From Patescibacteria group bacterium (lineage in GTDB: Bacteria; Patescibacteriota; Microgenomatia; UBA8517), in NCBI GenBank assembly GCA_041742135.1, contig JBGSJG010000008.1, positions 162,902-226,901 of the forward strand: a DNA stretch of 64,000 nucleotides, read 5' to 3'. The notes beneath the pieces are model-generated. The model saw only the letters and a list, made by a program, of their open reading frames with translations, was not told the DNA's origin and did not search any database. A program made the position numbers and the translations under genes. Shown one piece after another: positions 14,802-47,796 of this stretch. The stretch's first letter is position 1, and every line of letters starts with the position of its first letter.

Positions 14802-16199
14802 ATGGATATACCACTTACGATAGACGAGCTTCACAAAGGCTTTAAAAATAAAACTCATTCGATTTCTGGGGTTATTGAGCAATATTTATCTCGGATCGAA
14901 GCGTTTGATAAAAATCTTAACGCTTTTGTCACCGTTACTCACGATTACGCTCGCGAGCGTGCAAAAAAATTAGAAACAATATTGGCAGATAACCCAAATG
15001 CATTTGAGGAATTTCCACTTTTGGGAGTTACTATGGCAGTCAAAGATATGTACTTAACGCGCGGAGTAAGGACCACAGCGGGTTCAAAAGTGCTTGAGAG
15101 CTTTATTCCTGAGTATTCTTCAACTGCCTTTGAAAGGCTTGAGGCAGCTGGGGCGATTTTGGTTGGCAAAGCCAACTGTGATGCATGGGCGCATGGAAGT
15201 AGTGGTGAAAATAGCGATTTTGGTGCCACACACAATCCCTGGAATTTGGATTATGTACCGGGTGGGAGCTCGAGCGGATCGGCGGTAGCAGTAAGCTCTG
15301 GGATGAGCATGTTTTCGATGGGCACCGATACTGGCGGTTCAATTCGGCTTCCTGCTAGCTTTTGTAACGTCGTTGGCCTAAAGCCTACTTACGGCGCAGT
15401 CTCGCGCTACGGCGTAATAGCCATGGCCAGCTCGCTTGACTCGATGGGGCATTTTACGCGTAGCGTCAAAGACTCTGAAAAGATCTTCAAAGTTACAAGA
15501 GGGACTGATGGCCACGATGGAACACTTCGAAATGCTGACTATGCTCATAAAAATGTGAAAAAGATTGGTCTTCCGCGCGAGTACTTTTCAGACGGGTTGA
15601 GCGAAGAAGTCCGGGAGAAAACAATGGCTGCTGTCGATGTTTACAAAAAGGCTGGTTATGAAATTGTCGATGTGAGCATCCCGTCAACAAAGTATGCGAT
15701 ATCAATTTATTACATAGTCATGCCTGCGGAAGTAAGTTCAAATCTTGGCCGCTATGATGGGATCCGATACGGCAATAAACGTGATTCTTTCGGCGCCGAG
15801 GCCAAAAGAAGAATAATGCTCGGTACACACGTACTATCCAGTGGCTACTACGATGCTTATTACAATAAAGCAATGAAAGCCAGAACATTACTTAGAAATG
15901 ATTTTGACAAAGTATTTACGGAAGTAGACGCGTTAATTGCTCCAGCATCGCCCACGCTTCCATTCAAATTAGGTGAAAAAATGGATAACCCACTTGAGAT
16001 GTACTTAGCTGATATATTCACAGTATCTGCCAACTTAGTTGGAATCCCGGGAATTTCAATCCCCGCGGGCTTCAGTGATAGTGGGCTTCCGATCGGTTTT
16101 CAGTTATTTGCACCTCGCTTTATGGAATCAAGTCTTTTTGAGCTGGGAAATTCTTATCAAAGCATGACCGATTTTCATCTCAAAACACCGAGTTTATGA
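14802..16199 (+). CDS. gatA: Glu/Asp-tRNA amidotransferase subunit A (amidase)
   Basis: Amidase signature GGSSSGSAVAVSSG with the Ser-cisSer-Lys context. Confidence 0.9.
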   Translation: MDIPLTIDELHKGFKNKTHSISGVIEQYLSRIEAFDKNLNAFVTVTHDYARERAKKLETILADNPNAFEEFPLLGVTMAVKDMYLTRGVRTTAGSKVLESFIPEYSSTAFERLEAAGAILVGKANCDAWAHGSSGENSDFGATHNPWNLDYVPGGSSSGSAVAVSSGMSMFSMGTDTGGSIRLPASFCNVVGLKPTYGAVSRYGVIAMASSLDSMGHFTRSVKDSEKIFKVTRGTDGHDGTLRNADYAHKNVKKIGLPREYFSDGLSEEVREKTMAAVDVYKKAGYEIVDVSIPSTKYAISIYYIVMPAEVSSNLGRYDGIRYGNKRDSFGAEAKRRIMLGTHVLSSGYYDAYYNKAMKARTLLRNDFDKVFTEVDALIAPASPTLPFKLGEKMDNPLEMYLADIFTVSANLVGIPGISIPAGFSDSGLPIGFQLFAPRFMESSLFELGNSYQSMTDFHLKTPSL

Positions 16200-17473
16200 A
16201 GGAAATAAGAAGTTTATTATCAAATCGTAATTTTGTGCATCTGTGGGCATCACAGATCATTTCGCAAATTGTCGTGAACACTTTGAGCTTTTTGCTTTTG
16301 GTTTATCTTTTTGAAAAAACTGGCTCAACCATTGCAACGTCGTTAATCTGGGTGGCATACGCTTTGCCGGCCGTAGTATTTGGCCCCATTGCTGGGGTCT
16401 CTGCTGATGTGGCCAATAAGCGCAAAGTTTTAGTTGTTACGTTGATGGCAGAGGCGGCGATAGTTTTTGTGTTCGCGTTTTTATATTCTCGTTATCTATT
16501 TTTGGCTTATGGAATCGTGTTTTTCTACTCAATGGCAAATCATTTTTATATTCCTGCCGAAGCAGCCTCTCTTCCGATTCTTGTCAAAAAGAAAAGCTTG
16601 GCATTCGCAAACAGTTTGTTTTTCATGACCACTCAACTGGGTTTGGCTGTTGGCTTTTTGTCTGCGGGAGTTTTATATGAGAGCTTCGGCCTTCGCTCGA
16701 GTCTTCTGATTAGCTCAATACTCTTGCTTCTTGCGGGCACGTCTGTAAGTTTTTTGCCAAAGCTTAAGTCCACCACCAAGTTGCCAAAAGGCTTTTCTGC
16801 AGGTGTCAGCAAATTCTTTGAAGAATTCTTGGAAGGCTACAGATTTATTAAAGATACTAAGAAAATTTTTCTTCCGTTTTTACTTTTGATCGGACTTCAG
16901 TCCGCACTTTCTGTTCTCATGATCACTGTGCCTGTTTTGGCCCGAGATATTGTTCATGTACGCCCAAGTCTTGCTGGCGTAACAATTATTGCGCCTGCAA
17001 TTATCGGAGCAGTTTTGTGCAGCATATTGATCTCAAAGGCCATTGCCAGAGGGTTTTTGCAAAAGCGGATTATTGAAATTTCTTTGTTTTCACTTTCTCT
17101 AGCTCTTGTGCTTTTGGGAGCTATTGTTCCGAGCTTGCATTTTTGGGCGGGGCGCACCGCCGCAGTTGTGATATTTTTTATAGCTGGAGCGGCTTACGTA
17201 GGAACGCTTATTCCGACACTAACACACTTGCAAATATCAACCCCAGAAGATAAATTAGGGCGTGTTTTTGGAAGTATTTGGTTTATTACCACAGCAGCCA
17301 CGGTTATTCCTGTTTTGTTCTCAGCAACCATCACAGAAGTTTTTGGAGTAGGTTTAACAACGACAATATTGGGACTTTTCGGCTTTAGCATGTTCTTTGT
17401 TTCTGAGTTTGCCGAGCCTGGGGCATTGCAATATCGATTTCAGCAAATTTTCAAAAGGAGGAAAAATGACTAG
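16196..17473 (+). CDS. MFS transporter
   Basis: 12-TM architecture. Its start overlaps the gatA stop (ATGA) and its end overlaps gatB. Confidence 0.65.
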
Positions 17474-20788: not shown

Positions 20789-23700
20789 ATGGCCAATAAG
20801 TTTGTTCATCTTCATCTTCACACGGAATACAGCCTTCTTGATGGGCTGACTAAAATCAAAAAACTCACATCTAAAGTTAAGGAAATGGGTATGGATACGG
20901 TTGCAATAAGCGATCACGGGTCGATGTACGGCGCCATCGAGTTTTATCGCCAGTGCCAGAAGGACGAAGTAAAGCCAATAATTGGAATGGAAGCTTACAC
21001 ATGTTTAAACGACCACAAAGAGCGCCCTGCCAAAGGTGAGAAGTTTCAAAATTACCACTTATTGCTTCTGGCTAAAGACGAAGAGGGGTACAAGAATTTG
21101 ATGAAAATTGCATCAATTGCGCATTTGGAGGGCTATTATTATAGACCCAGAATTAGTAATGAAATTTTGGCTAAATACTCAAAAGGGCTAATCTGTACCT
21201 CAGCTTGCCCAGCTGGCGAGATGGCATCTCATTTGATTGATGGAGATTTTGACGGAGCTCGAAAGACTGCCAAGTGGTTTGTGGACGTTTTTGGTGATGA
21301 TTATTACCTGGAGGTGCAAAGACATAAGTATGACCAGCATATTACACCTCAGATGGATCGGGAACTTCGGGAGGAGCAGGAAAAGATGGTCAAGTATGAA
21401 AAACTGATTAACGAGGGAGTGGTCAAAATTTCCCACGAAATGGGAATTCCGATTGTAGCCACAAACGATGCACATTATCTTAACCGTGAAGACGCAACAG
21501 CTCAGGATGTTTTGGTCTGCGTTGCAACAGGCAAGCAAGTGTCTGACACCAAAAGAATCCGCTTTATTGATACGCCCGAGTATTACGTTAAGTCACCTGA
21601 GGAAATGGCGGAGCTGTTCCCTGATTTGCCGGAAGCGATTAGTAACACCGTGAAAGTTGCCGAAAAATGCAACTTGGAAATTACAACTCTGGGAAAATGG
21701 TTCTTTCCAAAATACGAAGTGCCTGGGGGTGCGCCACCAGATGATTACTTGCGAGAGTTGGCCCACACTCGACTTTTGGAAAAGTTTCCAGAAGCGGGGG
21801 ACTTTGAAAAAGACCGACTTGAGCACGAGCTGGGAATAATTTGCGGCAAAGGCTATGCACCATATTTTCTAATCATGATGGAGATGGTCAACTGGGCGAG
21901 TGATCAGGGCATTGTAACTAACACTAGGGGCTCCGCTGCTGGCTCTTTGGTATCGTTCGTTTTAGGGATAACAACAGTGGACCCGTTAAAATATTATTTG
22001 CCCTTTGAGCGCTTTTTAAACCCTTTCCGCCCTACTCCTCCTGATATTGATTTTGACGTATCAGACGTTCGCCGCGATGAAATCATTCATTATATTGGCG
22101 AGAAGTACGGCCACGACCGCGTGGCTCAAATTTGCACCTTTGGACGAATGCTAGCCCGAGCCGCGGCGCGTGATGTGGCTCGTGTTTTGGGCTACGAATA
22201 CGCAGTCGGGGATAGAATTTCAAAATTAATACCTCCTCCAAAGCAAGGATTCCCTGTAGATGTTCTTAAGGCCTTAAACGAAAGCCCTGAGCTTAAGAAT
22301 CTTTACGATTCTGATCCCGATGCGAAAAAAATCCTCGATCTCGCGCACGAGGTCGAAGGAAGTGCAAGGCATATTTCAGTCCATGCTGCGGGAGTAGTCG
22401 TTGCACCAACTGCACTTACTGATTTTACGCCGATTCAAAAAGATCCTAAGGGGGACAAAATAATTACTCAATATGAGATGCATGCGGCGGAGGATGTGGG
22501 CTTAATAAAGTTCGACGTACTTGGAATAAGAAATTTATCCATTTTGGGTTCATGTGTCGATATAGTCGAACAAACTCGTGGCAATCGTGTAAAACTTCGA
22601 GAGATTCCATTAGACGACAGCAAGACGTACGAAATGCTTGGCCGGGGGGAAACAATGGGTGTTTTTCAGCTTTCCAGTAGCGGCATGACAAAATGGCTGG
22701 TTGAGCTTAAGCCCGAGCGCATTGAAGACTTAATGGCGATGGTGGCACTTTATCGCCCCGGCCCGATGCAGACAATTCCTGAGTATATTGAGCGCAAACG
22801 CGATCCTTCTAAAGTAAAGTTTTTAGATCCCCGAATGGAAAAGTTTTTAGGTGCTTCGTACGGGCTAATTGTGTATCAGGACGATTTGCTGTTTTGCGCA
22901 CTTGATTTGGCGGGCTACACCTGGGAGGAAGCAGATAAGTTTAGAAAAGCTGTTGGTAAAAAAATCCCCGAGGAAATGGCTGCTCAAAAAGAGAAGTTTG
23001 AAACTGGCATTGTAGCTCACGGCCAGACCGTGGAGTTTGCTGAAAAACTCTGGAAGCTTTTTGAGCCCTTCCAGTCATATGGTTTTAACAAAGCACACGC
23101 AGCAAGCTATGGAATGGTCGCCTATCAAACTGCATACATGAAGGCCAATTACCCAGTGGAATATATGGCAGCTTTGATGAGCGCAGAATCGGGAGATTCG
23201 GACAAAATTACAGCAGCGATTTCTGAAAGTAAACGAATGGGGATAACAATTTTGCCTCCAGACATAAACGAAAGCGACATTGGCTTTAAGATTGTCGATG
23301 ACAAAGAATCCCTTGACGGGCGAGCGATTCGTTTCGGTTTTTCTGCAATCAAAAATGTGGGAAACGCCGCGATTGAGGCTATTTTGGCCGCGCGTGGAAG
23401 CCGTCAATTTGGGTCCGTGGCGGATTTCTTTGCACGAGTGGACACCCGAAAGGTAAATAAAAAAGTAGTTGAAAGCTTGGTTAAAGTTGGTGCATTTTCT
23501 TCATATGGAGCTCGTGCAGCACTTTTGAAATCGATGGATGAAATTCGCGCAAAAGTTAAGCCAGCCAACGCAATTGATGGCCAACAGGATTTATTTGCTA
23601 CGGATGACCCCAAAGAAGTTGAGCCTGTGAGTCAGCAGATCATAAAGATTGTCTCTAGCGTTCCCGAGTTTCCCGATCCAGAGCTTGAGGCACTCGAGCG

Positions 23701-24277
23701 AGAACTTCTTGGTTTTTCTCTGTCTGCAAGACCCCTTGAAGAGCTTTTTGGGCCATTAATTGGTTTTAGAACGCACAGGATTGATGAAATTAGTGTTGAT
23801 TCGGTTGGCAAAAGTCCTGTAAAAATCATTGGAGTTGTCGCACAAATTCGAAAAGTTGTTACTAAAAAGACTAGTGCAGAGATGGCATTCATTAGCGTAA
23901 AAGACGAGACCGGCTCCGTAGATGTGGTTATTTTCCCGAAGCTTTATGAAACTGCCAAGACACTTTTGGATAGTGCGGAGGCAGTTTTGATTACAGGCAA
24001 AGTTGACGATCGGGACGATAGCCTTTCGATTTTGGCGGATACCGTAGAAACTGAGGTGGATTTTCGTGATCAAAAGCCGGGGGTTTTTAGCGTGATGATT
24101 CCAAAAGGAGTGAACACCGATACGCTAAAGGAGCTGAAAAATATTCTCGCTGAGAACAAAGGTGATGCTGCGGTGGATTTGGTTTTTGAAGGAAATGGGA
24201 ATTCGCCAATCAAAGTCCCGTTCGGAGTTGCCTGGACCCCTACTCTTTCTGCTACAATAAGCGCTCTTTTACGATAA
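20789..24277 (+). CDS. dnaE: DNA polymerase III alpha subunit
   Basis: PHP N-terminus HLHLHTEYSLLDG, polymerase core and a C-terminal OB domain. 1162 aa. Confidence 0.9.
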   Translation: MANKFVHLHLHTEYSLLDGLTKIKKLTSKVKEMGMDTVAISDHGSMYGAIEFYRQCQKDEVKPIIGMEAYTCLNDHKERPAKGEKFQNYHLLLLAKDEEGYKNLMKIASIAHLEGYYYRPRISNEILAKYSKGLICTSACPAGEMASHLIDGDFDGARKTAKWFVDVFGDDYYLEVQRHKYDQHITPQMDRELREEQEKMVKYEKLINEGVVKISHEMGIPIVATNDAHYLNREDATAQDVLVCVATGKQVSDTKRIRFIDTPEYYVKSPEEMAELFPDLPEAISNTVKVAEKCNLEITTLGKWFFPKYEVPGGAPPDDYLRELAHTRLLEKFPEAGDFEKDRLEHELGIICGKGYAPYFLIMMEMVNWASDQGIVTNTRGSAAGSLVSFVLGITTVDPLKYYLPFERFLNPFRPTPPDIDFDVSDVRRDEIIHYIGEKYGHDRVAQICTFGRMLARAAARDVARVLGYEYAVGDRISKLIPPPKQGFPVDVLKALNESPELKNLYDSDPDAKKILDLAHEVEGSARHISVHAAGVVVAPTALTDFTPIQKDPKGDKIITQYEMHAAEDVGLIKFDVLGIRNLSILGSCVDIVEQTRGNRVKLREIPLDDSKTYEMLGRGETMGVFQLSSSGMTKWLVELKPERIEDLMAMVALYRPGPMQTIPEYIERKRDPSKVKFLDPRMEKFLGASYGLIVYQDDLLFCALDLAGYTWEEADKFRKAVGKKIPEEMAAQKEKFETGIVAHGQTVEFAEKLWKLFEPFQSYGFNKAHAASYGMVAYQTAYMKANYPVEYMAALMSAESGDSDKITAAISESKRMGITILPPDINESDIGFKIVDDKESLDGRAIRFGFSAIKNVGNAAIEAILAARGSRQFGSVADFFARVDTRKVNKKVVESLVKVGAFSSYGARAALLKSMDEIRAKVKPANAIDGQQDLFATDDPKEVEPVSQQIIKIVSSVPEFPDPELEALERELLGFSLSARPLEELFGPLIGFRTHRIDEISVDSVGKSPVKIIGVVAQIRKVVTKKTSAEMAFISVKDETGSVDVVIFPKLYETAKTLLDSAEAVLITGKVDDRDDSLSILADTVETEVDFRDQKPGVFSVMIPKGVNTDTLKELKNILAENKGDAAVDLVFEGNGNSPIKVPFGVAWTPTLSATISALLR

Positions 24278-24790: not shown

Positions 24791-25237
24791 ATGGCATTGA
24801 CCGCAACAATTAAAGAAACTAATTTTGGTGTTGGCGACGTTGTTCGCGTCTTCACTATAATCCCTGATAAGTCCGCTGAAGAGAAGGGCTCTCGTACTCA
24901 ATTTTTTGAAGGAACTGTGATTGGAATTGGGGGAGACGGTATGGGTAAAAGTTTTACTGTTCGAAGAATTGGTGAGCAGAAAGTTGGGATCGAGCAAATT
25001 TTTCCAGTTGCTTCTCCTTTAATTGAAAAGATTGAAATAATTCGAGCTGGCAAGCGTGGTGTGAGGCAGGCAAAGCTTTACTACATCCGAAGCAAAGCTA
25101 ATCGTGAAATTGAAAAGATCTATACCCGCGCGCGCGTTCGTGAGGCTTCCATAGCAAATAAAACTACTCCTAAAGCTAAAAAAGCCGTTAAGAAGGTAGT
25201 TAAAAAAACTTCAAAGAAAGCTTCTAAGTCGAAATAG
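24791..25237 (+). CDS. rplS: 50S ribosomal protein L19 with Lys-rich C-terminal tail
   Basis: GDVVRVFTIIPDKSAEEKGSRTQFFEGTVIGIGGDG...TVRRIGEQKVGIEQIFPVASPLIEKIEIIRAGKRGVRQAKLYYIR matches L19. Confidence 0.8.
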   Translation: MALTATIKETNFGVGDVVRVFTIIPDKSAEEKGSRTQFFEGTVIGIGGDGMGKSFTVRRIGEQKVGIEQIFPVASPLIEKIEIIRAGKRGVRQAKLYYIRSKANREIEKIYTRARVREASIANKTTPKAKKAVKKVVKKTSKKASKSK

Positions 25238-25239
25238 GC

Positions 25240-25267
25240 TTGCTTCTTTTTTTATTCGGGTTATGAT
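25240..25267 (+). promoter_or_regulatory. Candidate ruvC promoter (-35 TTGCTT, -10 TATGAT) with TTCGGGTT motif in spacer
   Basis: TTCGGGTT at 25255-25262, about 15 nt upstream of the ruvC ATG. The same 8-mer occurs in the lexA and uvrA promoters. Confidence 0.35.
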
Positions 25268-25276
25268 GAATGTAGA

Positions 25277-25777
25277 ATGATTGTACTCGGGATTGATCCC
25301 GGAACCGCCACTACGGGATATTCGATCCTTGAAGTCAATGGACACGGGCTAATTCCTTTGGAATTTGATCTTATCGAAACGGCCAAAACCTTCACCCACG
25401 CCGAAAGGTTAAGCATGATTTATGATCACACTAAAGAGATTATTCGCGTCAATCATCCTGATGTAATGGCTATCGAGAAAATCTTCTTTTCAAATAACGC
25501 AAAAACTGCAATATCTGTTGGCCAGGCACAGGGAGTGATGTTTTTGGCTGCGGCTGATTTTAAGCTTCCCATTGCAGAATACGCTCCGGGGACGATTAAG
25601 AAAATTGTATCGGGCAACGGGCGCGCAGATAAAAAAGAAGTACAACGTGCGCTAAGAGAAATTTTTGGCGCCAAGGTGAGAAGCAAGGCTAAAAAGAAGA
25701 CTCATTTCGACAACGCGGCAGACGCCTTAGCGGTGGCCTATTGCCATGTTATGATTACTCACAATGCGCAGGCGTAA
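25277..25777 (+). CDS. ruvC: Holliday junction resolvase RuvC
   Basis: MIVLGIDPGTATTGYSILE..., AIEKIFF and DNAADALAVAYCH catalytic acidic residues. Confidence 0.85.
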   Translation: MIVLGIDPGTATTGYSILEVNGHGLIPLEFDLIETAKTFTHAERLSMIYDHTKEIIRVNHPDVMAIEKIFFSNNAKTAISVGQAQGVMFLAAADFKLPIAEYAPGTIKKIVSGNGRADKKEVQRALREIFGAKVRSKAKKKTHFDNAADALAVAYCHVMITHNAQA

Positions 25778-34879: not shown

Positions 34880-35509
34880 TCAAATAGCCTGATACTTCCG
34901 GATTAACCCCACCACTTTTCCTTGAATTGTTACGTTTTTGACAAAGATCGGAGACATTGCGCTGTTGGCCGGCTCCAAGCGAATTCTGGTTGCTTCTTTG
35001 AAAAATCTTTTGAGTGTTGCTGTACCATTTTCTAAAAGCGCAACAACTATTTGGCCGTTCCTGGCTTCAGCAGTTTCTTCGATTACTACATAATCTCCGT
35101 CACGAATCTGCTCTTCGATCATCGATTCGCCCCGCACTTGCAAAACATAAACTCTTTTTTTGCTGGATACAAACGATGGTCCGATTGTCATTTTTGCGTG
35201 CGGATCAGTGTGAGGCTCGATTGGCCTTCCTGCCGCGATAAATCCTAGGATTGGAACTTCGACGGCTTTCTCTGAAACGAAATCAACGGTTTTATCTACA
35301 AGTTCGATTCCGCGGGTTTTGCCGCCTTTGCGTTTGATTATCCCTTTGGTTTGAAGTGATTCCAAGTGTTCATGAACTGTTGCCAAAGAAGAAACTCCGA
35401 TTGCATCTGCAATTTGGCGAAGTGTAGGAGCTGTTTGGTTTGCCTGAATGAATTGCTGAATAAAATCAACTATTTGCCTTTGGCGCTTATATAAAATAGG
35501 TGCTTGCAT
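34880..35509 (-). CDS. lexA: LexA repressor
   Basis: wHTH N-terminus (LTKRQREI-like QRQIVDF, TLRQIADAIG), S24 peptidase domain GESM, and cleavage-site region AAG at PILGFIAAG. Confidence 0.85.
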   Translation of the reverse strand: MQAPILYKRQRQIVDFIQQFIQANQTAPTLRQIADAIGVSSLATVHEHLESLQTKGIIKRKGGKTRGIELVDKTVDFVSEKAVEVPILGFIAAGRPIEPHTDPHAKMTIGPSFVSSKKRVYVLQVRGESMIEEQIRDGDYVVIEETAEARNGQIVVALLENGTATLKRFFKEATRIRLEPANSAMSPIFVKNVTIQGKVVGLIRKYQAI

Positions 35510-35515
35510 ATAAAC

Positions 35516-35544
35516 ACTCTACAAACAAAACCCGAAGTTGTCAA
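35516..35544 (-). promoter_or_regulatory. lexA promoter (-35 TTGACA, 17-nt spacer, -10 TAGAGT, leaderless) with TTCGGGTT motif in spacer; shared divergent region with the NTase-uvrB operon
   Basis: The minus strand reads TTGACAACTTCGGGTTTTGTTTGTAGAGT and ends 7 nt before the lexA ATG. The 12-mer ACAAAACCCGAA is identical to the uvrA upstream site. Confidence 0.45.
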
Positions 35545-35575
35545 TAATCAAAATGGGTCTTGATATACTTTAGTA

Positions 35576-36142
35576 ATGAATAGAAAAGCTGAACTTCGGC
35601 AGATGCTGTTTTCCGACAAACGGCTGATGAGAATTTTGAGCTTGGCAAGAGAAGCTAACTTACCTAACTGGTATATCGGAGCAGGGTTGATCAGGAATTA
35701 TGTTTGGGATTTTTTACATGGGTGGCCTCAAAGAACACCGATCCGGGATGTTGATTTTATTTATTACTCTCCGGACGCAATTGATGAAGTGAGAGTTAGA
35801 GCAATGCTTGCCAAAAAGATGCCCAAGATAGATTGGGATTTAAAAAACTCGGCCTTTGTACACGCTTGGTATGCCAATAAGGGGATCGTGCGGCCCGCGC
35901 TTAAATCTTCCGAAGAAGATATCGACGGCTGGCCTGAAACCGCTTCGTGTGTTGGAGTACGTTTGCAGGCTGACGATGAACTTCTTATCTATGTACCTTA
36001 CGAGGTTGATGATTTGCTAAATATGGTTTTTAGAAGAAATAAAAATAATCAATATAGCGTAAACGAAGAAGTTTTTCGCAAAAGAGTTATTGATAAGAAG
36101 ATAAAGGAACGATGGCCAAAAGTTAAAATTATTTACGATTGA
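35576..36142 (+). CDS. Minimal nucleotidyltransferase-fold protein (Pol-beta superfamily NTase, function unknown)
   Basis: GAGLIRNYVWDFLHG...RDVDFIYY fits the hG[GS]x(9-13)DhD NTase signature. Divergent from lexA and 25 nt upstream of uvrB. Confidence 0.5.
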   Translation: MNRKAELRQMLFSDKRLMRILSLAREANLPNWYIGAGLIRNYVWDFLHGWPQRTPIRDVDFIYYSPDAIDEVRVRAMLAKKMPKIDWDLKNSAFVHAWYANKGIVRPALKSSEEDIDGWPETASCVGVRLQADDELLIYVPYEVDDLLNMVFRRNKNNQYSVNEEVFRKRVIDKKIKERWPKVKIIYD

Positions 36143-36167
36143 TTTTAGCTTTACTTTCGCATTATAT

Positions 36168-38201
36168 TTGGTATATAGTTCTTACGTGAGCAAATTTCAA
36201 CTTAAGTCCCGTTACAAGCCTGTTTATGACCAAAAGAGCGCCATAGAAAAATTGGTCAAGGGCGTTCGTGGGCAAAATCCATATCAAGTCCTTTTGGGAG
36301 TTACAGGCTCTGGCAAAACTTTTACAGTTGCGAATCTTATCCAAAGGCTTCAAATGCCCACATTGATTCTGTCACACAATAAAACTCTTGCCGCCCAGCT
36401 TTACCAAGAATTTCGAGATTTTTTTCCTGAAAATGCAGTTAGCTACTTTGTCAGCTATTACGACTATTATCAACCTGAGGCTTATATCCCCTCGACTGAT
36501 ACTTACATTGAAAAAGACTCTGACATCAATGAGCTTATCGACAAGCTTCGGCTTGAGGCCACCGCAAATCTCCTAACGCGCAAAGATGTAATCGTGGTGG
36601 CTTCGGTTAGCGCCATCTACAACATCGGCTCACCAAAGGAGTACGGCAAATTTGTATTTGAATTTGTTAGTGGTATGAAAATTAGCCGTGAGCAAATCAT
36701 CGATAGATTAATCGATCTTCAATACGAGCGAGGCGAATTTGGCTTTCACCGCGGCACTTTTCGTGTCCGTGGGGACACGATTTCCATCTTCCCTTCATAT
36801 CAGGATCAAGCAGTCGATGTGGAGATGAAGGGGGAGCGGATTGATACGATTACCATTAGCGACCCCATCACGGGTAAAATTTTGGAAAACTTGAAAGCCC
36901 CCTTTACGCTCTTTCCCGCGAAGCATTTCATAACTGATCCTACCAAAAACAAGACGGCTTACCAAGCAATACGAAATGATTTAAAGGATCGAATTAACTA
37001 TTTTAAATCCAACGGCCAAGAACTTGAGGCAAATAGGATCAAACAAAAAGTCACATACGACCTGGAGATGATGGAGGAAATTGGCTATGTTAAAGGCATT
37101 GAAAATTATTCTAGGTATTTTGACGGCAGATCTCCGGGGGACGCGCCAAATTCTTTGCTGGAATACTTCAATGAAGCTTATGGTAAAGACTGGCTTGTAG
37201 TGGTTGATGAGAGCCATATAGGTTTTCCCCAAATTCGTGGAATGTATGCAGGGGACTTGTCTCGCAAGAAAACTTTGATTGATTACGGCTTCAGGCTTCC
37301 GGCAAGTTTGGATAATCGGCCCCTGACTTTTGATGAGTTTATGCGACGAATTCCCGGATTTATCGCCACTTCTGCAACGCCCGCTGAGTGGGAAAAATCC
37401 ATGGCTGGAGAGAAAAATATTGTAGAAATGCTTCTTCGGCCAACAGGCATTCCCGATCCGGAAGTGGAAATTAGGCCAGTTAAAACTCAAGTAGCCGATG
37501 TGATCGAAGAGATTAAAAAAAGAAAAGCTTTGGGACAGCGAACTTTAGTTACTACTTTAACCAAACGAACCGCGGAAGATTTGACTGAATACTTAAAAGA
37601 ACAGGGAATTGATGTTCAGTATTTGCATTCGGATGTTCATACTTTGGACCGAACTGACATCTTGGACGATCTGCGAGCTGGAAAATACGACTGTTTGGTT
37701 GGAATAAATTTGCTTCGAGAAGGCCTTGATTTGCCCGAAGTTTCTTTGGTTGCAATACTCGATGCGGACAAGGAAGGGTTTTTGCGAAGTGACGTGACCT
37801 TGATCCAGACCATGGGCCGCGCAGCCAGACATATCGATGGCCATGTGATTATGTATGCTGATCGCATCACAGGCTCTATGAAGCGAGCGTTGGACGAGGT
37901 CAAAAGACGCCGTGAATATCAGTTCTCAGTTAATAAAAAGTACGGGATAACGCCGACTCCGATTACCAAGCCAATCAGGGAAAAACTGGTGGATCGAGAA
38001 GTGGAAGCGGCAAGCCTTGCAATGGAAGATCGGGATATTGTTTATGCCAGACTGCCGGATATTGATCTAAATGCACTAACTCCGATGGATAAGAAAAAAC
38101 TTGCCAAAAAGCTCAAGCGAGAGATGAAGATTGCAGCCGAGGAACTTAATTTTGAACTTGCTATACAAATTCGTGACAAAGTTCACGAATTGGAAAACTG
38201 A
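36168..38201 (+). CDS. uvrB: Excinuclease ABC subunit B
   Basis: Helicase motifs (GVTGSGKT Walker A, DESH), beta-hairpin and C-terminal UVR domain (ELAIQIRDKVHELE). Confidence 0.9.
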   Translation: MVYSSYVSKFQLKSRYKPVYDQKSAIEKLVKGVRGQNPYQVLLGVTGSGKTFTVANLIQRLQMPTLILSHNKTLAAQLYQEFRDFFPENAVSYFVSYYDYYQPEAYIPSTDTYIEKDSDINELIDKLRLEATANLLTRKDVIVVASVSAIYNIGSPKEYGKFVFEFVSGMKISREQIIDRLIDLQYERGEFGFHRGTFRVRGDTISIFPSYQDQAVDVEMKGERIDTITISDPITGKILENLKAPFTLFPAKHFITDPTKNKTAYQAIRNDLKDRINYFKSNGQELEANRIKQKVTYDLEMMEEIGYVKGIENYSRYFDGRSPGDAPNSLLEYFNEAYGKDWLVVVDESHIGFPQIRGMYAGDLSRKKTLIDYGFRLPASLDNRPLTFDEFMRRIPGFIATSATPAEWEKSMAGEKNIVEMLLRPTGIPDPEVEIRPVKTQVADVIEEIKKRKALGQRTLVTTLTKRTAEDLTEYLKEQGIDVQYLHSDVHTLDRTDILDDLRAGKYDCLVGINLLREGLDLPEVSLVAILDADKEGFLRSDVTLIQTMGRAARHIDGHVIMYADRITGSMKRALDEVKRRREYQFSVNKKYGITPTPITKPIREKLVDREVEAASLAMEDRDIVYARLPDIDLNALTPMDKKKLAKKLKREMKIAAEELNFELAIQIRDKVHELEN

Positions 38202-38317: not shown

Positions 38318-38548
38318 CTATTCTTCTCTTTTAGTCTTTTCTAAGGCTTCCCGCGCAGTTTCGATCGCTCTTTTGCTTGCGTCAAGTTGACTACGAAAAG
38401 CTTCTGCTACCAATTTAATTGTTGCAACCAAGTCATCCGGGTCTTTTAAAAGCACTAAGGTTGCATCACCTTCGTCATTTCCAGGCCGAATGTACTCTGT
38501 TTTAAAAAAACCTCTTTCAAAAAACATTTCGGGCGACTCATCTCGCAT
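38318..38548 (-). CDS. Hypothetical small acidic protein (76 aa)
   Basis: Same frame as the 38573..38917 ORF. Possibly the C-terminal part of an interrupted gene. Confidence 0.3.
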   Translation of the reverse strand: MRDESPEMFFERGFFKTEYIRPGNDEGDATLVLLKDPDDLVATIKLVAEAFRSQLDASKRAIETAREALEKTKREE

Positions 38549-38572: not shown

Positions 38573-38917
38573 CTAGCCGCGGTCAGCTGAATTTGTAATA
38601 AAACCTATGACCTCCTCTCTTGTTTCAGTGCTACCATTATTCAGGTCCAACCTGTAAAATCCAAAAGGTGTCATGACAAAATAACTTTTTGTGCCTTCCC
38701 ATTCTTTTGGGTTCGGAATGGGCATATTTGGGATAAGGGTTAGGTTTTCACCCTCGCCTAAACGAGCGAAAAACTTAACAATAGATTTTTCGTCTTGATC
38801 AGCAAAATCGGCAATAATTGATCGCATTTGCGCCGCCTCGTTTGTTGGGTCGTCCATGCCAAGAACTTCACCGTCATCACCAATTACCAAATCTGGAGTC
38901 ATACGGGGATTATACAC
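38573..38917 (-). CDS. Hypothetical small acidic protein (114 aa)
   Basis: ORF of unknown family. In frame with the downstream 76-aa ORF, separated by a single TAG plus 8 codons. Confidence 0.3.
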   Translation of the reverse strand: MYNPRMTPDLVIGDDGEVLGMDDPTNEAAQMRSIIADFADQDEKSIVKFFARLGEGENLTLIPNMPIPNPKEWEGTKSYFVMTPFGFYRLDLNNGSTETREEVIGFITNSADRG

Positions 38918-38964: not shown

Positions 38965-39195
38965 GTGGCAAAGAAAAACGGTAACGATCAATTTGTAACA
39001 AGGTCGATGTTAGACGAGGCAGTTGAGGCGATTCTGGCAGGTATGCAAAAAATGTTCGATCGTCAATCAAAAAGTATTGATAATTTAGAGGCTAAAGTGG
39101 ACAACGGATATGTGCAGTTAAGGCACGAGATTCGTGATCTACGCCATGATACCCCGAGTAAACAAGAATTCAACGATCTTAAATCTTCTCTGTAA
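38965..39195 (+). CDS. Hypothetical small coiled-coil protein
   Basis: 76-aa ORF directly upstream of the uvrA promoter. No family. Confidence 0.3.
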   Translation: MAKKNGNDQFVTRSMLDEAVEAILAGMQKMFDRQSKSIDNLEAKVDNGYVQLRHEIRDLRHDTPSKQEFNDLKSSL

Positions 39196-39200
39196 TTTAC

Positions 39201-39231
39201 TTACAAAACCCGAAACTTTTTGTGGTACAAT
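39201..39231 (+). promoter_or_regulatory. Candidate uvrA promoter (-35 TTACAA, extended -10 TGgTACAAT) with ACAAAACCCGAA motif in spacer
   Basis: The motif at 39203-39214 is identical as a 12-mer to the lexA site. The probable real start codon is the ATG at 39234 or 39243. Confidence 0.4.
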
Positions 39232-42167: not shown

Positions 42168-43967
42168 ATGCGTAAAGCGTTACTTGTCGCAATTATTCTT
42201 TTCTCTTCAATTTTTCCAGCTACTACAAATGCGTCCGAAAACTTTCTATTGGCTTCTGAGGTGACATATGAAGTTTTGGAATCAGGCAGCACTAAAATTT
42301 CTCACTTAATTTCTTTGACAAATGCGGTAACTGAGATTCACGCCACTGACTACACACTTGCACTAAAAGGAGCAAAACCAAGTAGTGTCGAAGCCTATGA
42401 GGATAAAGCGAAGCTTCAGACAGAATTAAGTTATGACGGAGACATGGCTTTAGTGAAAGTAATTTTTGATGAGCCGGTGGTTGGCGTGGGCCAAAAAAGA
42501 GAGTTTAGCGTGAACTACCTTGATGCTTCCATAGTTAAGTCTGCAGGTGACGTCGACGAGATTACGGTTCCTAGGCTTGCAGATGAAACTGAGTACGAGT
42601 CCTATCTCGTGCGCCTTAAAATTCCCACCAGTTTTGGCCGTGCCAGCTATGTTTCTCCAGAGCCGGACAATGTGCTTTCCGACGCAAGTGTCACAACATA
42701 TTACTTTAATAAATCGAAACTCAATACTGCGGGAGTAACTGCCGCAATTGGCGACTTTCAGATTTTTTCTTTCGACCTGACTTATCACCTTCAAAATCCG
42801 CTCGCTGTTGGAACCAAGATGGAAATCGCGCTTCCTCCAGATACTTCTTTTCAAAAAATTATGTACGAATCTCTTAACCCGCTACCGGACAATGTTTATC
42901 AAGACGCGGACGGCAACTGGATGGCAATTTATGGCCTTGCTGCGCGCGAGAGGCTTGATGTTCGGGCAATTGGAACCGCTCAGGTTTATGCTGCAGCCTG
43001 GATGAGCGACAAGTTAAGCACTGAAGACCGGGAAGATAATTTGAAGGAAACGGAGTTTTGGCAGGTGAATGATGAGAAAATTCGCGAAGTTGCAGGAACG
43101 CTAAAAAACCCTAAAGAAATTTACGATTACGTTGTGACAACTCTGACATATAATTACGAGAAAGTTACAGAGGGACCAAAGAGGCCTGGCGCTGTACAGG
43201 CTTTAGCAAACCCATCTCTTGCAATTTGTACGGAGTTTACTGACCTTTTTATCGCTCTGGCCAGAGCCTCTGGAATTCCTGCGAGGGAAGTTAACGGCTA
43301 TGCTTATACGGACAATTCATCACTTAAGCCGCTGTCTTTGGTTAACGATGTCTTGCACGCTTGGCCGGAGTACTGGGACCACGAGGCAAGTATATGGAGG
43401 CCGGTAGACCCAACTTGGGCTAAAACGACAGGTGGCATAGATTATTTTACAAAACTTGATATGCGCCATGTGAGTTTTGTAATGCACGGCAGAAGCTCGA
43501 CGACTCCGATTCCGCCCGGATCATACAAGCTTGGCGCCAATCCCCAAAAAGACGTTTTTATTTCATTTGGCCAACTTACCCCTTCCGCGACAAGCGCGCG
43601 GCTTAACTACTATCAAGAAACAACGCTTCCTTTCGACGGCGCGAATTTGGTAATTGATATCGTCAACCCCGGTCCTGCTGCGCTTTATTCTCAAAAAGCC
43701 TCGATATATTTCGAGGACGAGCTTTACTATGAAAAAGATGTCGAGATCTTACTTCCTTTTGAAAAGCGTAAGTTGGAATTCACGATTCCATATGGATTTT
43801 TGGGAAGCCAAATGCCCGAGAAAGCCAGAATAGTTATTGGCAACACTAGCCATGAGTATAAAACGGATAAAGCTCCAGCAGTATTTAGAGATTTATTTTC
43901 GATCCTATTAATCTCAGGAATTGGGCTACTTTCCGTGTTTATAATAGTCAAGAAATTAAGAAAATGA
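42168..43967 (+). CDS. Extracytoplasmic transglutaminase-like cysteine protease domain protein (signal peptide, C-terminal TM anchor)
   Basis: Core Cys-His-Asp context: CTEFTDLFIALARASGIPAR...HAWPEYW...VDPT. Also an N-terminal signal peptide and a C-terminal hydrophobic anchor. Confidence 0.65.
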   Translation: MRKALLVAIILFSSIFPATTNASENFLLASEVTYEVLESGSTKISHLISLTNAVTEIHATDYTLALKGAKPSSVEAYEDKAKLQTELSYDGDMALVKVIFDEPVVGVGQKREFSVNYLDASIVKSAGDVDEITVPRLADETEYESYLVRLKIPTSFGRASYVSPEPDNVLSDASVTTYYFNKSKLNTAGVTAAIGDFQIFSFDLTYHLQNPLAVGTKMEIALPPDTSFQKIMYESLNPLPDNVYQDADGNWMAIYGLAARERLDVRAIGTAQVYAAAWMSDKLSTEDREDNLKETEFWQVNDEKIREVAGTLKNPKEIYDYVVTTLTYNYEKVTEGPKRPGAVQALANPSLAICTEFTDLFIALARASGIPAREVNGYAYTDNSSLKPLSLVNDVLHAWPEYWDHEASIWRPVDPTWAKTTGGIDYFTKLDMRHVSFVMHGRSSTTPIPPGSYKLGANPQKDVFISFGQLTPSATSARLNYYQETTLPFDGANLVIDIVNPGPAALYSQKASIYFEDELYYEKDVEILLPFEKRKLEFTIPYGFLGSQMPEKARIVIGNTSHEYKTDKAPAVFRDLFSILLISGIGLLSVFIIVKKLRK

Positions 43968-45256
43968 AGACTTTTGCTGCTGAGAAAAAAAACGTTAAAT
44001 TGTTGCCACATGCTCCGGGAGTGTATATGTTTCGTGATGACCAAAAGGTAATTTACATCGGCAAGGCCAAGAACTTATTTAATCGCGTTGGCTCATATTT
44101 TATGAAGGATTTGGAACTTAAGACCTCGCGCATGGTGGCAAGTGCCAAGACGATTTCGTATATCCCCGTTGAGTCAGAATTTGAAGCCTTGCTTTTGGAG
44201 GCAAAACTCGTCAATAAAAATAAGCCTAAATACAACATCGAACTTCGAGATGACAAAAGCCCGTTATATATTGGTATAACCCGAGACGAACTGCCTCGAG
44301 TAATTTTGTTGCGCCAGAAAGAGCTGGCCAGCGCAAAGCTTAAAAATGTTTATGGACCTTTTATAAATTCAACAAGTCCCAAATTGGTTCTTAAAATGAT
44401 ACGAAGAATTTTTCCATTCGGGACACATAAGCCCACCAAGCGTGCCTGTGTCGACAACCAAATCGGCTTATGCAATCCCTGTCCTTCAGAAGTATTGGCG
44501 GATCCAAGTTTGCGCCGTGAATATTTATTAAATATTCGACGAACTAACGCGATATTATCTGGAAAATCAAAACAAGTATTATTGCAACTTCAATCATCTC
44601 GTGACAAGTTTTCAAAAGAGGAAAAGTTTGAAGAAGCTCGAGAAGTGTCGAGTAAAATTCGCGCACTCGAATATACTGTCAGCCGGCGTGAGCTAAATGA
44701 CTCATACTTGGAAAACCCCAATCTTTTGGAAGATATTAGAAAAAAGGAAACCGATCAGTTGGGCAAAATAATAAACAAATTTATAAAAACCCGTCAACTT
44801 AGGCGCATTGAGTGCTTTGATATTGCACATTTGTCTGGAACGTATCCGACCGCATCAATGGTTACTTTTGTCGATGGAGAACCGGACAAGAGTTTGTACA
44901 GACATTACAAAGTTTCCGAAGGCATAAAAAATGACGATCCGGGCTCTATGAAATCGGTTCTTGAGCGGCGAAAGTATAGATTTGATAGTTGGGGAAAGCC
45001 CGATTTAATTATTGTCGACGGAGGGCGTGGGCAGTTGTCCGCGGCTCTTGAAGTATTAGGGAACAGTGTACCGGTTGTTGGCTTAGCCAAAAAACTTGAG
45101 ACTTTGATTTTTATGACAGACAAAGGTTTTGAAGAATTTGTGCTGCCCGAAAGCTCAGCCAAAAAATTGGTTCAACGAATTCGCGATGAAGCACACCGTT
45201 TTGCTCGCTCGTATCATCACAAGCTCGTCAGTCGGGCAATTCGTGAGTCGAAATGA
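43964..45256 (+). CDS. uvrC: Excinuclease ABC subunit C, short form lacking C-terminal (HhH)2 domain
   Basis: GIY-YIG domain (PGVYMFRD...VIYIGKAKNLFNRVGSYF), UVR motif (FEEAREVSSKIRALE) and RNase-H-like endonuclease domain (IECFDIAHLSG). Only 430 aa. Confidence 0.8.
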   Translation: MKTFAAEKKNVKLLPHAPGVYMFRDDQKVIYIGKAKNLFNRVGSYFMKDLELKTSRMVASAKTISYIPVESEFEALLLEAKLVNKNKPKYNIELRDDKSPLYIGITRDELPRVILLRQKELASAKLKNVYGPFINSTSPKLVLKMIRRIFPFGTHKPTKRACVDNQIGLCNPCPSEVLADPSLRREYLLNIRRTNAILSGKSKQVLLQLQSSRDKFSKEEKFEEAREVSSKIRALEYTVSRRELNDSYLENPNLLEDIRKKETDQLGKIINKFIKTRQLRRIECFDIAHLSGTYPTASMVTFVDGEPDKSLYRHYKVSEGIKNDDPGSMKSVLERRKYRFDSWGKPDLIIVDGGRGQLSAALEVLGNSVPVVGLAKKLETLIFMTDKGFEEFVLPESSAKKLVQRIRDEAHRFARSYHHKLVSRAIRESK

Positions 45257-45927: not shown

Positions 45928-46971
45928 TCAAGATGAAACTTTTTCCCAGGGGAGGCCGTCTTTGCCAAAGTGTCCATATGCTGAAGTAAGGTGATACAAG
46001 GGCATCCTCAAATTGAGCTTTTTAATGATTTCCAAAGGACGAAAATCATACTTAGAAGTTACAATTTTTGATAAATTTTGCCCTTTTTCGTTTACCGCGG
46101 TAACCATCAAAGGCTCAGCCTTACCGATGGCGTACGATACAGATACAAGCACCTTTTTGCCATGGCCTTGGGCAACAAGGTTTTTGGCTGTATAGCGGCA
46201 CATGTATGCGGCTGATCTATCTACCTTGGTAGGATCTTTACCAGAAAAACAACCACCACCGTGTGGGATTAACCCGCCGTATGTGTCTACCATAATTTTT
46301 CGGCCAGTTAATCCTGTGTCTGCTGCAAAGCCGCCAAGAACGAAACTTCCTGTTGGATTAACCAAGATTTCAATCCCCACAGCACTCCCGACAATTGGTT
46401 TAATAAGCTTATTGATTAAGTATTTTCTAATCTCAGCCTGAGATACATCTTTTTTATGCTGGGTGCTAACAAGGACTGTTTTAACATGACCATTAGTAAT
46501 AGTTACCTGTGTTTTGCCATCCGGCATAAGCCAGTCTGCGTTTTTGCGAAGTGTTTCAAGCCCGTGAGCGAGCTTGTGAGCCAGAACTACCCCAAGCGGA
46601 AGGTACTCGGGGGTTTCATTCGTAGCATAGCCATACATAATTCCTTGATCTCCGGCTCCTCCAATATCAACGCCCTGTGCGATATCTGGTGATTGTTTCA
46701 CTATGTGTGAAATTATTTTCAGTCTGTCGCGATAACCGATATCCGAATATACTTTTTTGGCAATTTTTTCGGCTTCAAAGGTTGCGTTTGTTGTCACTTC
46801 GCCAGCAACTACCAGCAGTCCGTGGGCGCCTAAGCACTCGATAGCGACTCGGGATCTGGGGTCTTGGGCCAAACAAGCATCAAGCACTGCATCGGAAATC
46901 TGGTCGCATACTTTGTCGGGATGTCCGTTCGTCACAGATTCGACAGTGTAGGTTTTATATTGAGGAATCAT
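45928..46971 (-). CDS. metK: S-adenosylmethionine synthetase
   Basis: YTVESVTNGHPDKVCDQISDAVLDA, GAGDQGIMYGYA and GGGCFSGKDPTKVDRSAAY motifs. Confidence 0.9.
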   Translation of the reverse strand: MIPQYKTYTVESVTNGHPDKVCDQISDAVLDACLAQDPRSRVAIECLGAHGLLVVAGEVTTNATFEAEKIAKKVYSDIGYRDRLKIISHIVKQSPDIAQGVDIGGAGDQGIMYGYATNETPEYLPLGVVLAHKLAHGLETLRKNADWLMPDGKTQVTITNGHVKTVLVSTQHKKDVSQAEIRKYLINKLIKPIVGSAVGIEILVNPTGSFVLGGFAADTGLTGRKIMVDTYGGLIPHGGGCFSGKDPTKVDRSAAYMCRYTAKNLVAQGHGKKVLVSVSYAIGKAEPLMVTAVNEKGQNLSKIVTSKYDFRPLEIIKKLNLRMPLYHLTSAYGHFGKDGLPWEKVSS

Positions 46972-47068
46972 GTATCTTTCTATTTAAGCTAGATTTGGCA
47001 CCGCTCTTTTCAAAGAAGGTTGCCGGTGGGTCATCGGGCTAGTTCCCTCGCCACACTCTTGATACTTA
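46972..47068 (-). promoter_or_regulatory. SAM-I (S-box) riboswitch in metK 5' leader
   Basis: The minus strand reads GTATCAAGAGTGTGGCGAGGGAACTAGCCCGATGACCCACCGGCAACC...AAGAGCGGTGCCAAATCTAGC...GATAC. This matches the SAM-I consensus blocks AUCAAGAG, GAGGGA, GCCCGAUGA, GGCAACC and GGUGCCAAAUC. The P1 3' strand GATAC abuts the ATG. Confidence 0.75.
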
Positions 47069-47091: not shown

Positions 47092-47796
47092 TTATAAAGT
47101 CAAATACTTCTTGCGCGTATTTTCAGGAAATCTTTCAATTGCATAACGAAGTGTGGTTCTCGGAAGCTTACGAATGTGTTTGGTTAGAAAAGCCTCAAGA
47201 GCTTTTTGGTCCTTTTTGCCAGCTTCACGCAAAGCCCAGCCAACAGCTTTATGCATCAAGTCCTCGTGGTCGCCTAAAAGCATTTCGGCTATTTTATAAG
47301 TGTCCTCAGTTTGATTTTCGCGTAAAAAAGCAAAGGTGGAAACAATCGCGATTCGGCGCTCCCAAAGCGAGCTCGATTTGGCAAGCTTATACAAAATTTT
47401 TCGGTCACCATTTAGTAAATACTTGCCCACAATTTTGTGGCAAGTTACATCCACCAAATCCCAATTGTTCACATGCTTAGTGTTAGCAAGATAAAAATCA
47501 AAAATCAGCTTTTGGTCAAGATACCGTTTTTCAAACTGATCCACCAAAATTAAAAGCCCAATCATCCGCTCTTCATGATATGGGGACCCTAGCAAGGTCT
47601 TAATGTCTGTAAGAGAAAGGGCTGGGTACTTTTTGGCGATAGCTCTCATTTGGGGAACTGTATGGCCTAAAAAAACATCACCAAATCCGTATTGGCCTTC
47701 ACCTGTTTTAAAGAATCTCTGAGAATGCTGGGCACGAATTGGATCACCTTGGGATCGTATATCTTTTTGGATTTGAAGAAGTGCCATTTTATTCAA
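47092..47796 (-). CDS. DNA alkylation repair glycosylase (AlkD/AlkC-like HEAT-repeat family)
   Basis: HEAT-like repeat protein with DPIRAQHSQRFFKTGEGQYGFGD...ERMIGLLIL...NNWDLVD typical of PF08713. Confidence 0.7.
   Translation of the reverse strand: MNKMALLQIQKDIRSQGDPIRAQHSQRFFKTGEGQYGFGDVFLGHTVPQMRAIAKKYPALSLTDIKTLLGSPYHEERMIGLLILVDQFEKRYLDQKLIFDFYLANTKHVNNWDLVDVTCHKIVGKYLLNGDRKILYKLAKSSSLWERRIAIVSTFAFLRENQTEDTYKIAEMLLGDHEDLMHKAVGWALREAGKKDQKALEAFLTKHIRKLPRTTLRYAIERFPENTRKKYLTL

Follow-up and report, generated by a model that had tools for sequence, protein, structure and literature searches.

The SOS network and the LexA-binding motif of the Patescibacteria were reportedly described in 2017 by Sanchez-Osuna, Barbe and Erill (Environ Microbiol 19:3465). 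In a later paper from the same laboratory, the LexA proteins of one genome from the Microgenomates (Ca. Collierbacteria), the group to which Woesebacteria also belong, and of one from the Parcubacteria are listed as experimentally validated, with PMID 28618189 as the source, and PMC7739468 cites that same work among the independent origins of a direct-repeat LexA motif. The LexA binding site has changed many times, and direct-repeat sites occur in Alphaproteobacteria and Balneolaeota; the Balneolaeota motif, TTACACATATTTTWTACATA, is a non-palindromic direct repeat that was identified by comparative genomics of lexA promoters and then confirmed in gel shifts (PMC7739468). The locus described here lies in a stretch of 64,000 nucleotides (nt) of contig JBGSJG010000008.1 (positions 162,902 to 226,901; assembly GCA_041742135.1), the whole of which is called the window. 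An earlier note on this DNA had proposed an 8-mer found upstream of lexA, uvrA and ruvC as a candidate SOS operator that may be of a type other than the known LexA boxes. A direct-repeat LexA motif is already cited for Patescibacteria (PMID 28618189), so the type is not an unknown one, and the window site is a further instance of the known direct-repeat kind and not a new operator class. The 8-mer itself appears to be the high-information, best-conserved half of a LexA operator in a Woesebacteria-like bacterium, a reading to which we assign a probability of roughly 85%.

The window contained a lexA gene (34880-35509, minus strand) coding for a protein of 209 amino acids (aa) with Pfam matches to PF01726 (winged-helix DNA-binding) and PF00717 (S24 peptidase). 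The protein matched the Thermotoga maritima LexA structure 3k2z over its full length (E = 1.4e-30), and its translation showed the Ala-Gly cleavage site in IAAGRP, the catalytic Ser in GESM and the Lys in LKRF. With winged helix, S24 peptidase, cleavage site and Ser/Lys dyad all present, it is a canonical LexA. It was 87% identical to the LexA of a Candidatus Woesebacteria metagenome-assembled genome, G+C content was about 43% throughout the window, and the window is assigned to a genome of the Patescibacteria (Candidate Phyla Radiation, CPR) close to Candidatus Woesebacteria. For comparison, the 80 best-matching lexA loci of a genome collection were gathered with the window LexA; they were labelled Woesebacteria, Microgenomates, Pacebacteria or Patescibacteria, or came from evidently mislabelled bins of such kind. 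The gene identities given in the earlier note for lexA, NTP_transf_6, uvrB, uvrA and ruvC all agreed with Pfam.

The lexA promoter (35516-35544, minus strand) was read correctly in that note, with the -35 element TTGACA (35544-35539), a 17-nt spacer and the -10 element TAGAGT (35521-35516), and its leaderless appearance was confirmed, as six nt separate the -10 element from the ATG at 35509. A promoter scan gave it 10 of 12 consensus matches. The putative operator TTCGGGTTTTGTTTGTAG occupies 35519-35536 on the minus strand and consists of the heptamers TTCGGGT and TTTGTAG, 11 base pairs (bp) apart. Operator positions were counted from a transcription start set seven nt after the -10 element; at lexA the leaderless start is the A of ATG 35509, and the operator lies at -27 to -10, filling the spacer and reaching two bases into the -10 element. 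Conservation of a promoter spacer is unusual. In the alignment of related lexA promoters, TTCGGGTWWTRTTYGTA stood between TTGACA and the -10 element in 47 of 80, and information content was higher in the spacer columns than in the -35 hexamer. When all 8-mers within the 90 nt upstream of lexA were counted without bias, TTCGGGTT (on the other strand AACCCGAA) came out as the commonest: it was present at 27 of 76 loci, where the remainder of the same loci predicts 0.0029. The related lexA sites were also turned into a weight matrix of 17 columns, which was run on the window and on 100 shuffled windows. It scored the lexA site at 27.9 bits, the uvrA site at 23.0 and the ruvC copy at 9.4, with a shuffle maximum of 19.8 and a noise level of about four matches of at least 10 bits per shuffled window. 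By its conservation in orthologous lexA promoters and a matrix score above all shuffles, the proposed SOS operator at lexA is very likely a real one: it was found in the repressor gene's own promoter, over the core elements, and it is conserved beyond the surrounding DNA.

The 8-mer AACCCGAA occurred at 25255-25262 (minus strand), 35529-35536 (plus) and 39207-39214 (plus); these positions, and the absence of any further copy from the window, are as the earlier note had them. Its statement that three copies are far beyond chance fails, as 2.46 copies are expected from dinucleotide-preserving shuffles of the window (n = 100) and three or more were reached in 46 of these. What does exceed chance is the 12-mer ACAAAACCCGAA, identical, as had been noted, at lexA (35525-35536) and uvrA (39203-39214), with 2 copies against 0.02 expected and 2 reached in none of the 100 shuffles. 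Over the longer site, lexA and uvrA agreed at 15 of 17 positions; the actual unit is 17-18 bp and not 8 or 12.

The operator consensus was TTCGGGTWWTR-TTYGTA, about 18 bp, made of two TTYGKRT heptamers that start 11 bp apart. Self-similarity of the heptamers in the lexA-site alignment reached a direct-repeat maximum of 0.515 at a shift of 11, against a background of about 0.25, and at best 0.33 for an inverted arrangement. Two half-sites stand at a fixed 11-bp spacing, and the expectation for a dimer-type site is therefore borne out. The pattern TTCG-N7-TT(Y/A)G fitted 34 of 47 lexA sites. The claim that the motif is no palindrome holds, as inverted symmetry was lacking, while the claim that it does not match GTTC-N7-GTTC is right on the surface only, since the site, too, repeats directly with a period of 11 bp. 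Two palindromic readings, ACAA-N9-TTGT at lexA and ACAAAA-N9-TTTTGT at uvrA, were rejected; their spacings differ (counted from the same ACAA, 9 nt in one and 13 nt in the other), and the alignment showed no inverted symmetry.

A second, symmetric half-site model, in which both heptamers are treated alike, was scored at the 128,000 strand positions of the window. Its top four matches were all intergenic and directly upstream of lexA (35519-35536, score 20.9), ruvC (25244-25261, 16.8), uvrA (39197-39214, 15.3) and uvrB (36156-36173, 13.8). In related loci a score of at least 13 was found upstream of 80% of lexA and 65% of uvrB genes, and in the control, 177 upstream regions of 100 nt each from other genes of related CPR loci, no region reached 13 (maximum 11.4). 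Besides lexA, the element is thus present at the repair genes uvrA and uvrB, in the window as in relatives, and it is rare elsewhere. Shuffled windows gave a score of at least 16 on 0.28 occasions each. Within the window, the symmetric model placed no top-scoring match upstream of the PolX gene, the DNA alkylation repair gene or dnaE. Further matrix matches at 4858, 18388, 11896, 5131, 61072 and 44705 lie inside coding regions with noise-level scores and were dismissed as sites. A scan of a viral collection with the degenerate 17-mer served as a negative control: its 55 matches are about the chance number by a rough estimate, none lay near LexA/Uvr genes or after TTGAC, and the two that were inspected fell inside capsid-like genes of large viruses.

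The uvrA gene (plus strand) runs to 42164 from ATG 39234, the database call, or from ATG 39243 (MTQEYIQVRGARQHNL); the database UvrA protein (P0001) has 976 aa. Its candidate operator, TTCGGGTTTTGTAAGTAA, lies at 39197-39214 on the minus strand, antisense to uvrA, at about -41 to -24, where it covers the -35 region and the part of the spacer next to it. At uvrA and ruvC, for both of which a promoter had been suggested, the consensus scan recovered no sigma-70-type promoter; uvrA has only an extended -10 element, TGGTACAAT, read by eye at 39223-39231 on the plus strand, and ruvC only a weak TTGCTT-N16-TATGAT. Eight orthologous loci were found through UvrA homologues, and all eight were syntenic, with PPDK, enolase, iPGM, lexA, divergent uvrB, then uvrA, a transglutaminase-like gene and uvrC. 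The identical 17-mer TTCGGGTTTTGTAAGTA preceded uvrA in two of them (L162 and L172; 23.0 bits each, antisense), and antisense sites scored 20.0 bits in L171, 13.0 in L164, 12.4 in L161 and 11.1 in L165. L163 reached 7.0 bits, its single TTCGGGT running directly into the -10 element on the opposite strand (TTCGGGTAAAAT), and L166 had no match; there, uvrA overlaps the preceding gene and is thus without a promoter of its own. The chance of a score of at least 11 bits in such a region, estimated from the window shuffles, is about 0.015, and because sites of that strength stand before orthologous uvrA genes, uvrA is taken as a conserved target. The claim that the 8-mer is shared with uvrA and ruvC accordingly stands for uvrA, where the site is conserved in orthologous promoters, and falls for ruvC, where it is not.

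A separate uvrA operator appeared where inserted genes interrupt the uvrB-uvrA run, as they do in the window. The insert here comprises open reading frames (ORFs) at 38318-38548 (minus), 38573-38917 (minus) and 38965-39195 (plus), none with a Pfam match, and relatives have other genes or none at this position. Downstream of uvrA lie the transglutaminase-like gene (42168-43967) and uvrC (43964-45256), both on the plus strand and identified with Pfam. In the window, and likewise in all eight relatives (L161-L166, L171, L172), a transglutaminase-core gene of about 600 aa stood between uvrA and uvrC with hardly any gap on either side. Because there are almost no gaps, uvrA, the transglutaminase-like gene and uvrC probably form one operon.

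The uvrB gene (plus strand, to 38201) was identified with Pfam and its start was taken from orthologue comparison as GTG 36186, where GTG-AGC-AAA-TTT-CAA-CTT-AAG-TCC reads M-S-K-F-Q-L-K-S and orthologous UvrB proteins begin M-x-K-F-K-L-K-S. The mechanical first in-frame start, TTG 36168, was ruled out by these N-termini. Promoter and start span 36169-36188 (plus strand; TGG-TATATAGT), with the -10 element TATAGT at 36174-36179, six nt and then GTG 36186; the same geometry of -10 plus six nt was common to lexA, the nucleotidyltransferase (NTase) gene and uvrB. The uvrB operator TTCGCATTATATTTGGTA (TTCG-N7-TTTG; 36156-36173, plus strand) covers -30 to -13, including the TG of the extended -10 element. 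The 43-nt gap between the NTase gene and uvrB (36143 onward) therefore holds a full leaderless promoter with its operator, and both this site and the true uvrB start had been overlooked before. The proposal that the divergent lexA region drives an NTase-uvrB operon does not hold for that region as the only source of uvrB transcription, as uvrB has its own GTG start, promoter and operator. In 13 orthologous uvrB promoters a sense-oriented TTCG-N7-TTYGG stood 23-38 nt before the start, with the window at -30; examples are TTCGCATTAACTTCGGGT in L004, TTCGGATTACTTTCGGGT in L009 and the site of L028, at -30. In a second group of uvrB loci, with very short intergenic regions, the lexA operator is shared and lies 50-60 nt before the uvrB start. 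In total, 22 of 49 relatives scored at least 12 upstream of uvrB.

The NTase gene (NTP_transf_6, Pfam PF06042; 35576-36142, plus strand) has an extended -10 element, TGATATACT, at 35561-35569 (plus strand), followed by six nt and ATG 35576. Its promoter takes the place of the uvrB promoter seen in "class A" relatives, where lexA and uvrB are divergent neighbours. Relative to the NTase promoter the lexA operator occupies -57 to -40, and it would probably act on this divergent promoter as well. The slot between lexA and uvrB was variable: it holds NTP_transf_6 in the window (35576-36142) and unannotated ORFs of 43-165 aa in relatives (L161, 6178-7243; L165, 4070-4510; L172, 1666-2103), and most relatives have uvrB immediately next to lexA in divergent orientation. 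The slot looks like a place for changing cargo genes behind a promoter under SOS control.

The layout of lexA operators clearly differs between CPR groups. In the more distant Pacebacteria-like lexA promoters (L049-L056, L069, L070; about 50-95 nt upstream) up to four tandem units were found, TTTG-N7-TTCG-N7-TATG-N7-TTCG, and Paceibacterota-like ones (L045, L046, L057, L064) showed TTCG-N7-TTCGG followed by an inverted repeat, TTCGGG-N9-CCCGAA. Both kinds of loci had a Shine-Dalgarno AGGA, and the Woesebacteria-like lexA genes look leaderless.

In the mechanism that these results suggest, a LexA dimer would bind both heptamers on one face of the DNA, 11 bp being one helical turn. The operators overlap promoter cores directly before start codons, from which leaderless or nearly leaderless mRNAs would be made. 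Bound LexA may keep RNA polymerase off the promoter, as LexA does in other bacteria, and DNA damage would lead to RecA-stimulated self-cleavage of LexA at its Ala-Gly bond, by which the promoters would be freed. The sites in the window would act on lexA (autoregulation), on uvrB through its own promoter and on the uvrA promoter, from which uvrA, the transglutaminase-like gene and uvrC are probably transcribed jointly. Positions, conservation and statistics of the sites were observed directly; that LexA is the protein that binds them, and that it represses by binding, we infer.

Several observations weigh against this interpretation. The second heptamer is degenerate, and the picture of a dimer on a direct repeat draws on the 11-bp periodicity and on analogy. 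The uvrB site reached only 8.7 bits with the lexA-derived 17-mer matrix, and TTCG-N7-TTYGG was not enriched in the window (3 copies against 1.79 expected), which leaves positional conservation as the sole support for uvrB. At the NTase promoter the lexA operator stands farther upstream than the -35 element, so repression by LexA is uncertain there. A tblastn search with an approximate E. coli RecA query found no recA, the most diagnostic SOS gene, in the window or the collected loci.

The most doubtful of the three 8-mer copies is that of ruvC (25277-25777, plus strand). The upstream element TTCTTTTTTTATTCGGGT followed by TATGAT spans 25244-25267 (plus strand), and its TTCGGGT (25255-25261) abuts the -10-like hexamer at 25262-25267. 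It has one perfect heptamer, TTCGGGT, and a weak partner, TTCTTTT. In E. coli, ruvAB and not ruvC is regulated by LexA. Possibly the ruvC copy was acquired recently in this lineage and functions as a LexA site, with its strong half at the -10 element and a weak TTC partner 11 bp upstream; we hold this as a tentative possibility, at clearly less than even odds. Its score of 16.8, second in the window under the symmetric model, exceeds all 177 control upstream regions (maximum 11.4); by chance, an exact copy of the 8-mer would fall within 60 nt of any one gene about 0.002 times; and the layout of TTCGGGT fused to the -10 element recurred at the uvrB genes of L014 and L041 and at uvrA of L163. 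Against this, its 9.4 bits with the 17-mer matrix are at noise level, the partner TTCTTTT lacks the near-invariant G, and shuffled windows yield a symmetric score of at least 16 at the rate of 0.28 each, as given above.

The orthologous promoters also speak against a working site at ruvC. Among 80 metagenome loci collected for ruvC, CPR-like ones were found only at a RuvC identity of at least 49%, and the N-terminus was complete in 15 of these; the closest protein homologues (80-84% identical) added four loci, no RuvC in the protein collection being more than 84% identical. The motif was present in 0 of 20 CPR orthologous ruvC promoters, and the 19 with full N-termini that were tallied reached at most 7.5, like the controls. 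In the five closest relatives the frame CTTGCTTCTT...TAAGATGAAT...ATG is preserved, and in place of the window's ATTCGGGT they show ATTTCATC, AATTCCTC, ATTTCCTT, AATTAGGC or an insertion; the spacer thus appears to drift freely. Most likely, ruvC is not part of the conserved regulon and its copy is due to chance or to a lineage-specific gain. Separately, many of the high-G+C ruvC loci (L103-L160; RuvC about 40% identical) shared GGCAGGCGTCCG, about 10 nt and GCGCAGAATC directly before the start (last 45 nt), a conserved element, promoter or operator, that belongs to another phylum.

It is unlikely that the Woesebacteria-type site is a variant distinct from the published Patescibacteria motif, with a strongly asymmetric direct repeat in which a single near-perfect TTCGGGT at the -10 element suffices and the ruvC half-site and the NTase gene are lineage-specific SOS recruits.

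Less probable still, with only slim odds, is that the element confers promoter specificity, or is bound by another regulator, at lexA, uvrA and uvrB. It always lies inside or beside the core promoter, and in lexA promoters its 3' end merges with the -10 element (TTTGTA-t), as this explanation would have it. Its orientation varies, however, from sense at lexA and uvrB to antisense at uvrA, and its distance to the -10 element differs between sites, which would not be tolerable for a promoter element. Because it occurs in both orientations and at varying distances from the -10 element, the evidence argues for an operator. Its presence in the repressor gene's own promoter in most relatives is the hallmark of LexA autoregulation, and the two Patescibacteria LexA proteins listed as validated (citing PMID 28618189) point the same way.

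That the three copies all arose by chance, as a short word in AT-rich promoter DNA, has a negligible probability: the 8-mer count is at chance level (3 against 2.46) and the 55 degenerate 17-mer matches in a huge unrelated collection lay near no LexA/Uvr gene, but the 12-mer count (2 against 0.02), the lexA and uvrA matrix scores above all shuffles, and conservation at lexA, uvrA and uvrB promoters across dozens of species, with control upstream regions that never score, refute it for lexA and uvrA and leave it for ruvC alone.

Other features of the window were also recorded. The ruvC gene follows rplS (24791-25237, plus strand) and dnaE (20789-24277), all three identified with Pfam, and a "putative phage metallopeptidase" gene (PF18894; 25764-26165) overlaps its end; the order dnaE, rplS, ruvC, metallopeptidase, holA-like was kept in three relatives (L167-L169). 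A PolX-type polymerase gene (11159-12937, plus strand; DNA polymerase beta thumb and PHP domain in Pfam) and a DNA alkylation repair enzyme gene (47092-47796, minus strand; Pfam) had no recognisable LexA site upstream. An S-adenosylmethionine (SAM) riboswitch (Rfam RF00162, 64 bits; 46969-47068, minus strand) stood directly upstream of the S-adenosylmethionine synthetase gene (45928-46971, minus strand). The interval 16197-17400 has no gene in the ORF map; it reads as an uninterrupted hydrophobic coding sequence from ATG 16197 (membrane protein) and is not an intergenic gap.

The window offers what appears to be a well-supported instance of LexA control in an uncultured CPR bacterium with a reduced genome. 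One repressor and three short operators appear to govern the entire set of nucleotide-excision repair genes (uvrB, uvrA and probably uvrC) from leaderless promoters, and the operator is duplicated whenever inserted genes break the ancestral lexA-uvrB-uvrA arrangement. The uvrB start codon was corrected. Because a direct-repeat LexA site was already reported for the superphylum, no new question is opened, and the practical use lies in annotation and in the choice of DNA fragments for binding assays.

Compared with known systems, the site is closest to the Patescibacteria motif (PMID 28618189), which belongs to the same superphylum and is cited as a direct repeat, as here; the likeness is one of this description and not of compared consensus sequences. 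The species of the window, and its arrangement of an NTase gene inserted between lexA and uvrB with separate operators for uvrB and uvrA, are not known to be described in that work. The Alphaproteobacteria box GTTC-N7-GTTC has the same 11-bp period, the direct repeat and a TTC core in both halves, whereas the present site reads TTCG-N7-TTYG, its first half (TTCGGGT) being long and strongly conserved and its second half degenerate. Read literally, GTTC-N7-GTTC was found in 2 of 47 lexA sites (L036 and L037: GTTCGGGTAATGTTCG); the window lexA site is CTTC-N7-GTTT and departs from that consensus. The likeness to the Alphaproteobacteria box is one of geometry and does not imply common descent of the LexA lineages. 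The Balneolaeota motif is likewise a direct repeat, but of another sequence and length and from an unrelated phylum. The E. coli box CTGT-N8-ACAG and the Gram-positive box GAAC-N4-GTTC resemble the present system in that the promoters of the repressor itself, uvrA and uvrB carry the site over their core elements. The present site differs from these palindromic SOS boxes in its direct rather than inverted symmetry, in its sequence and in its leaderless or nearly leaderless promoters.

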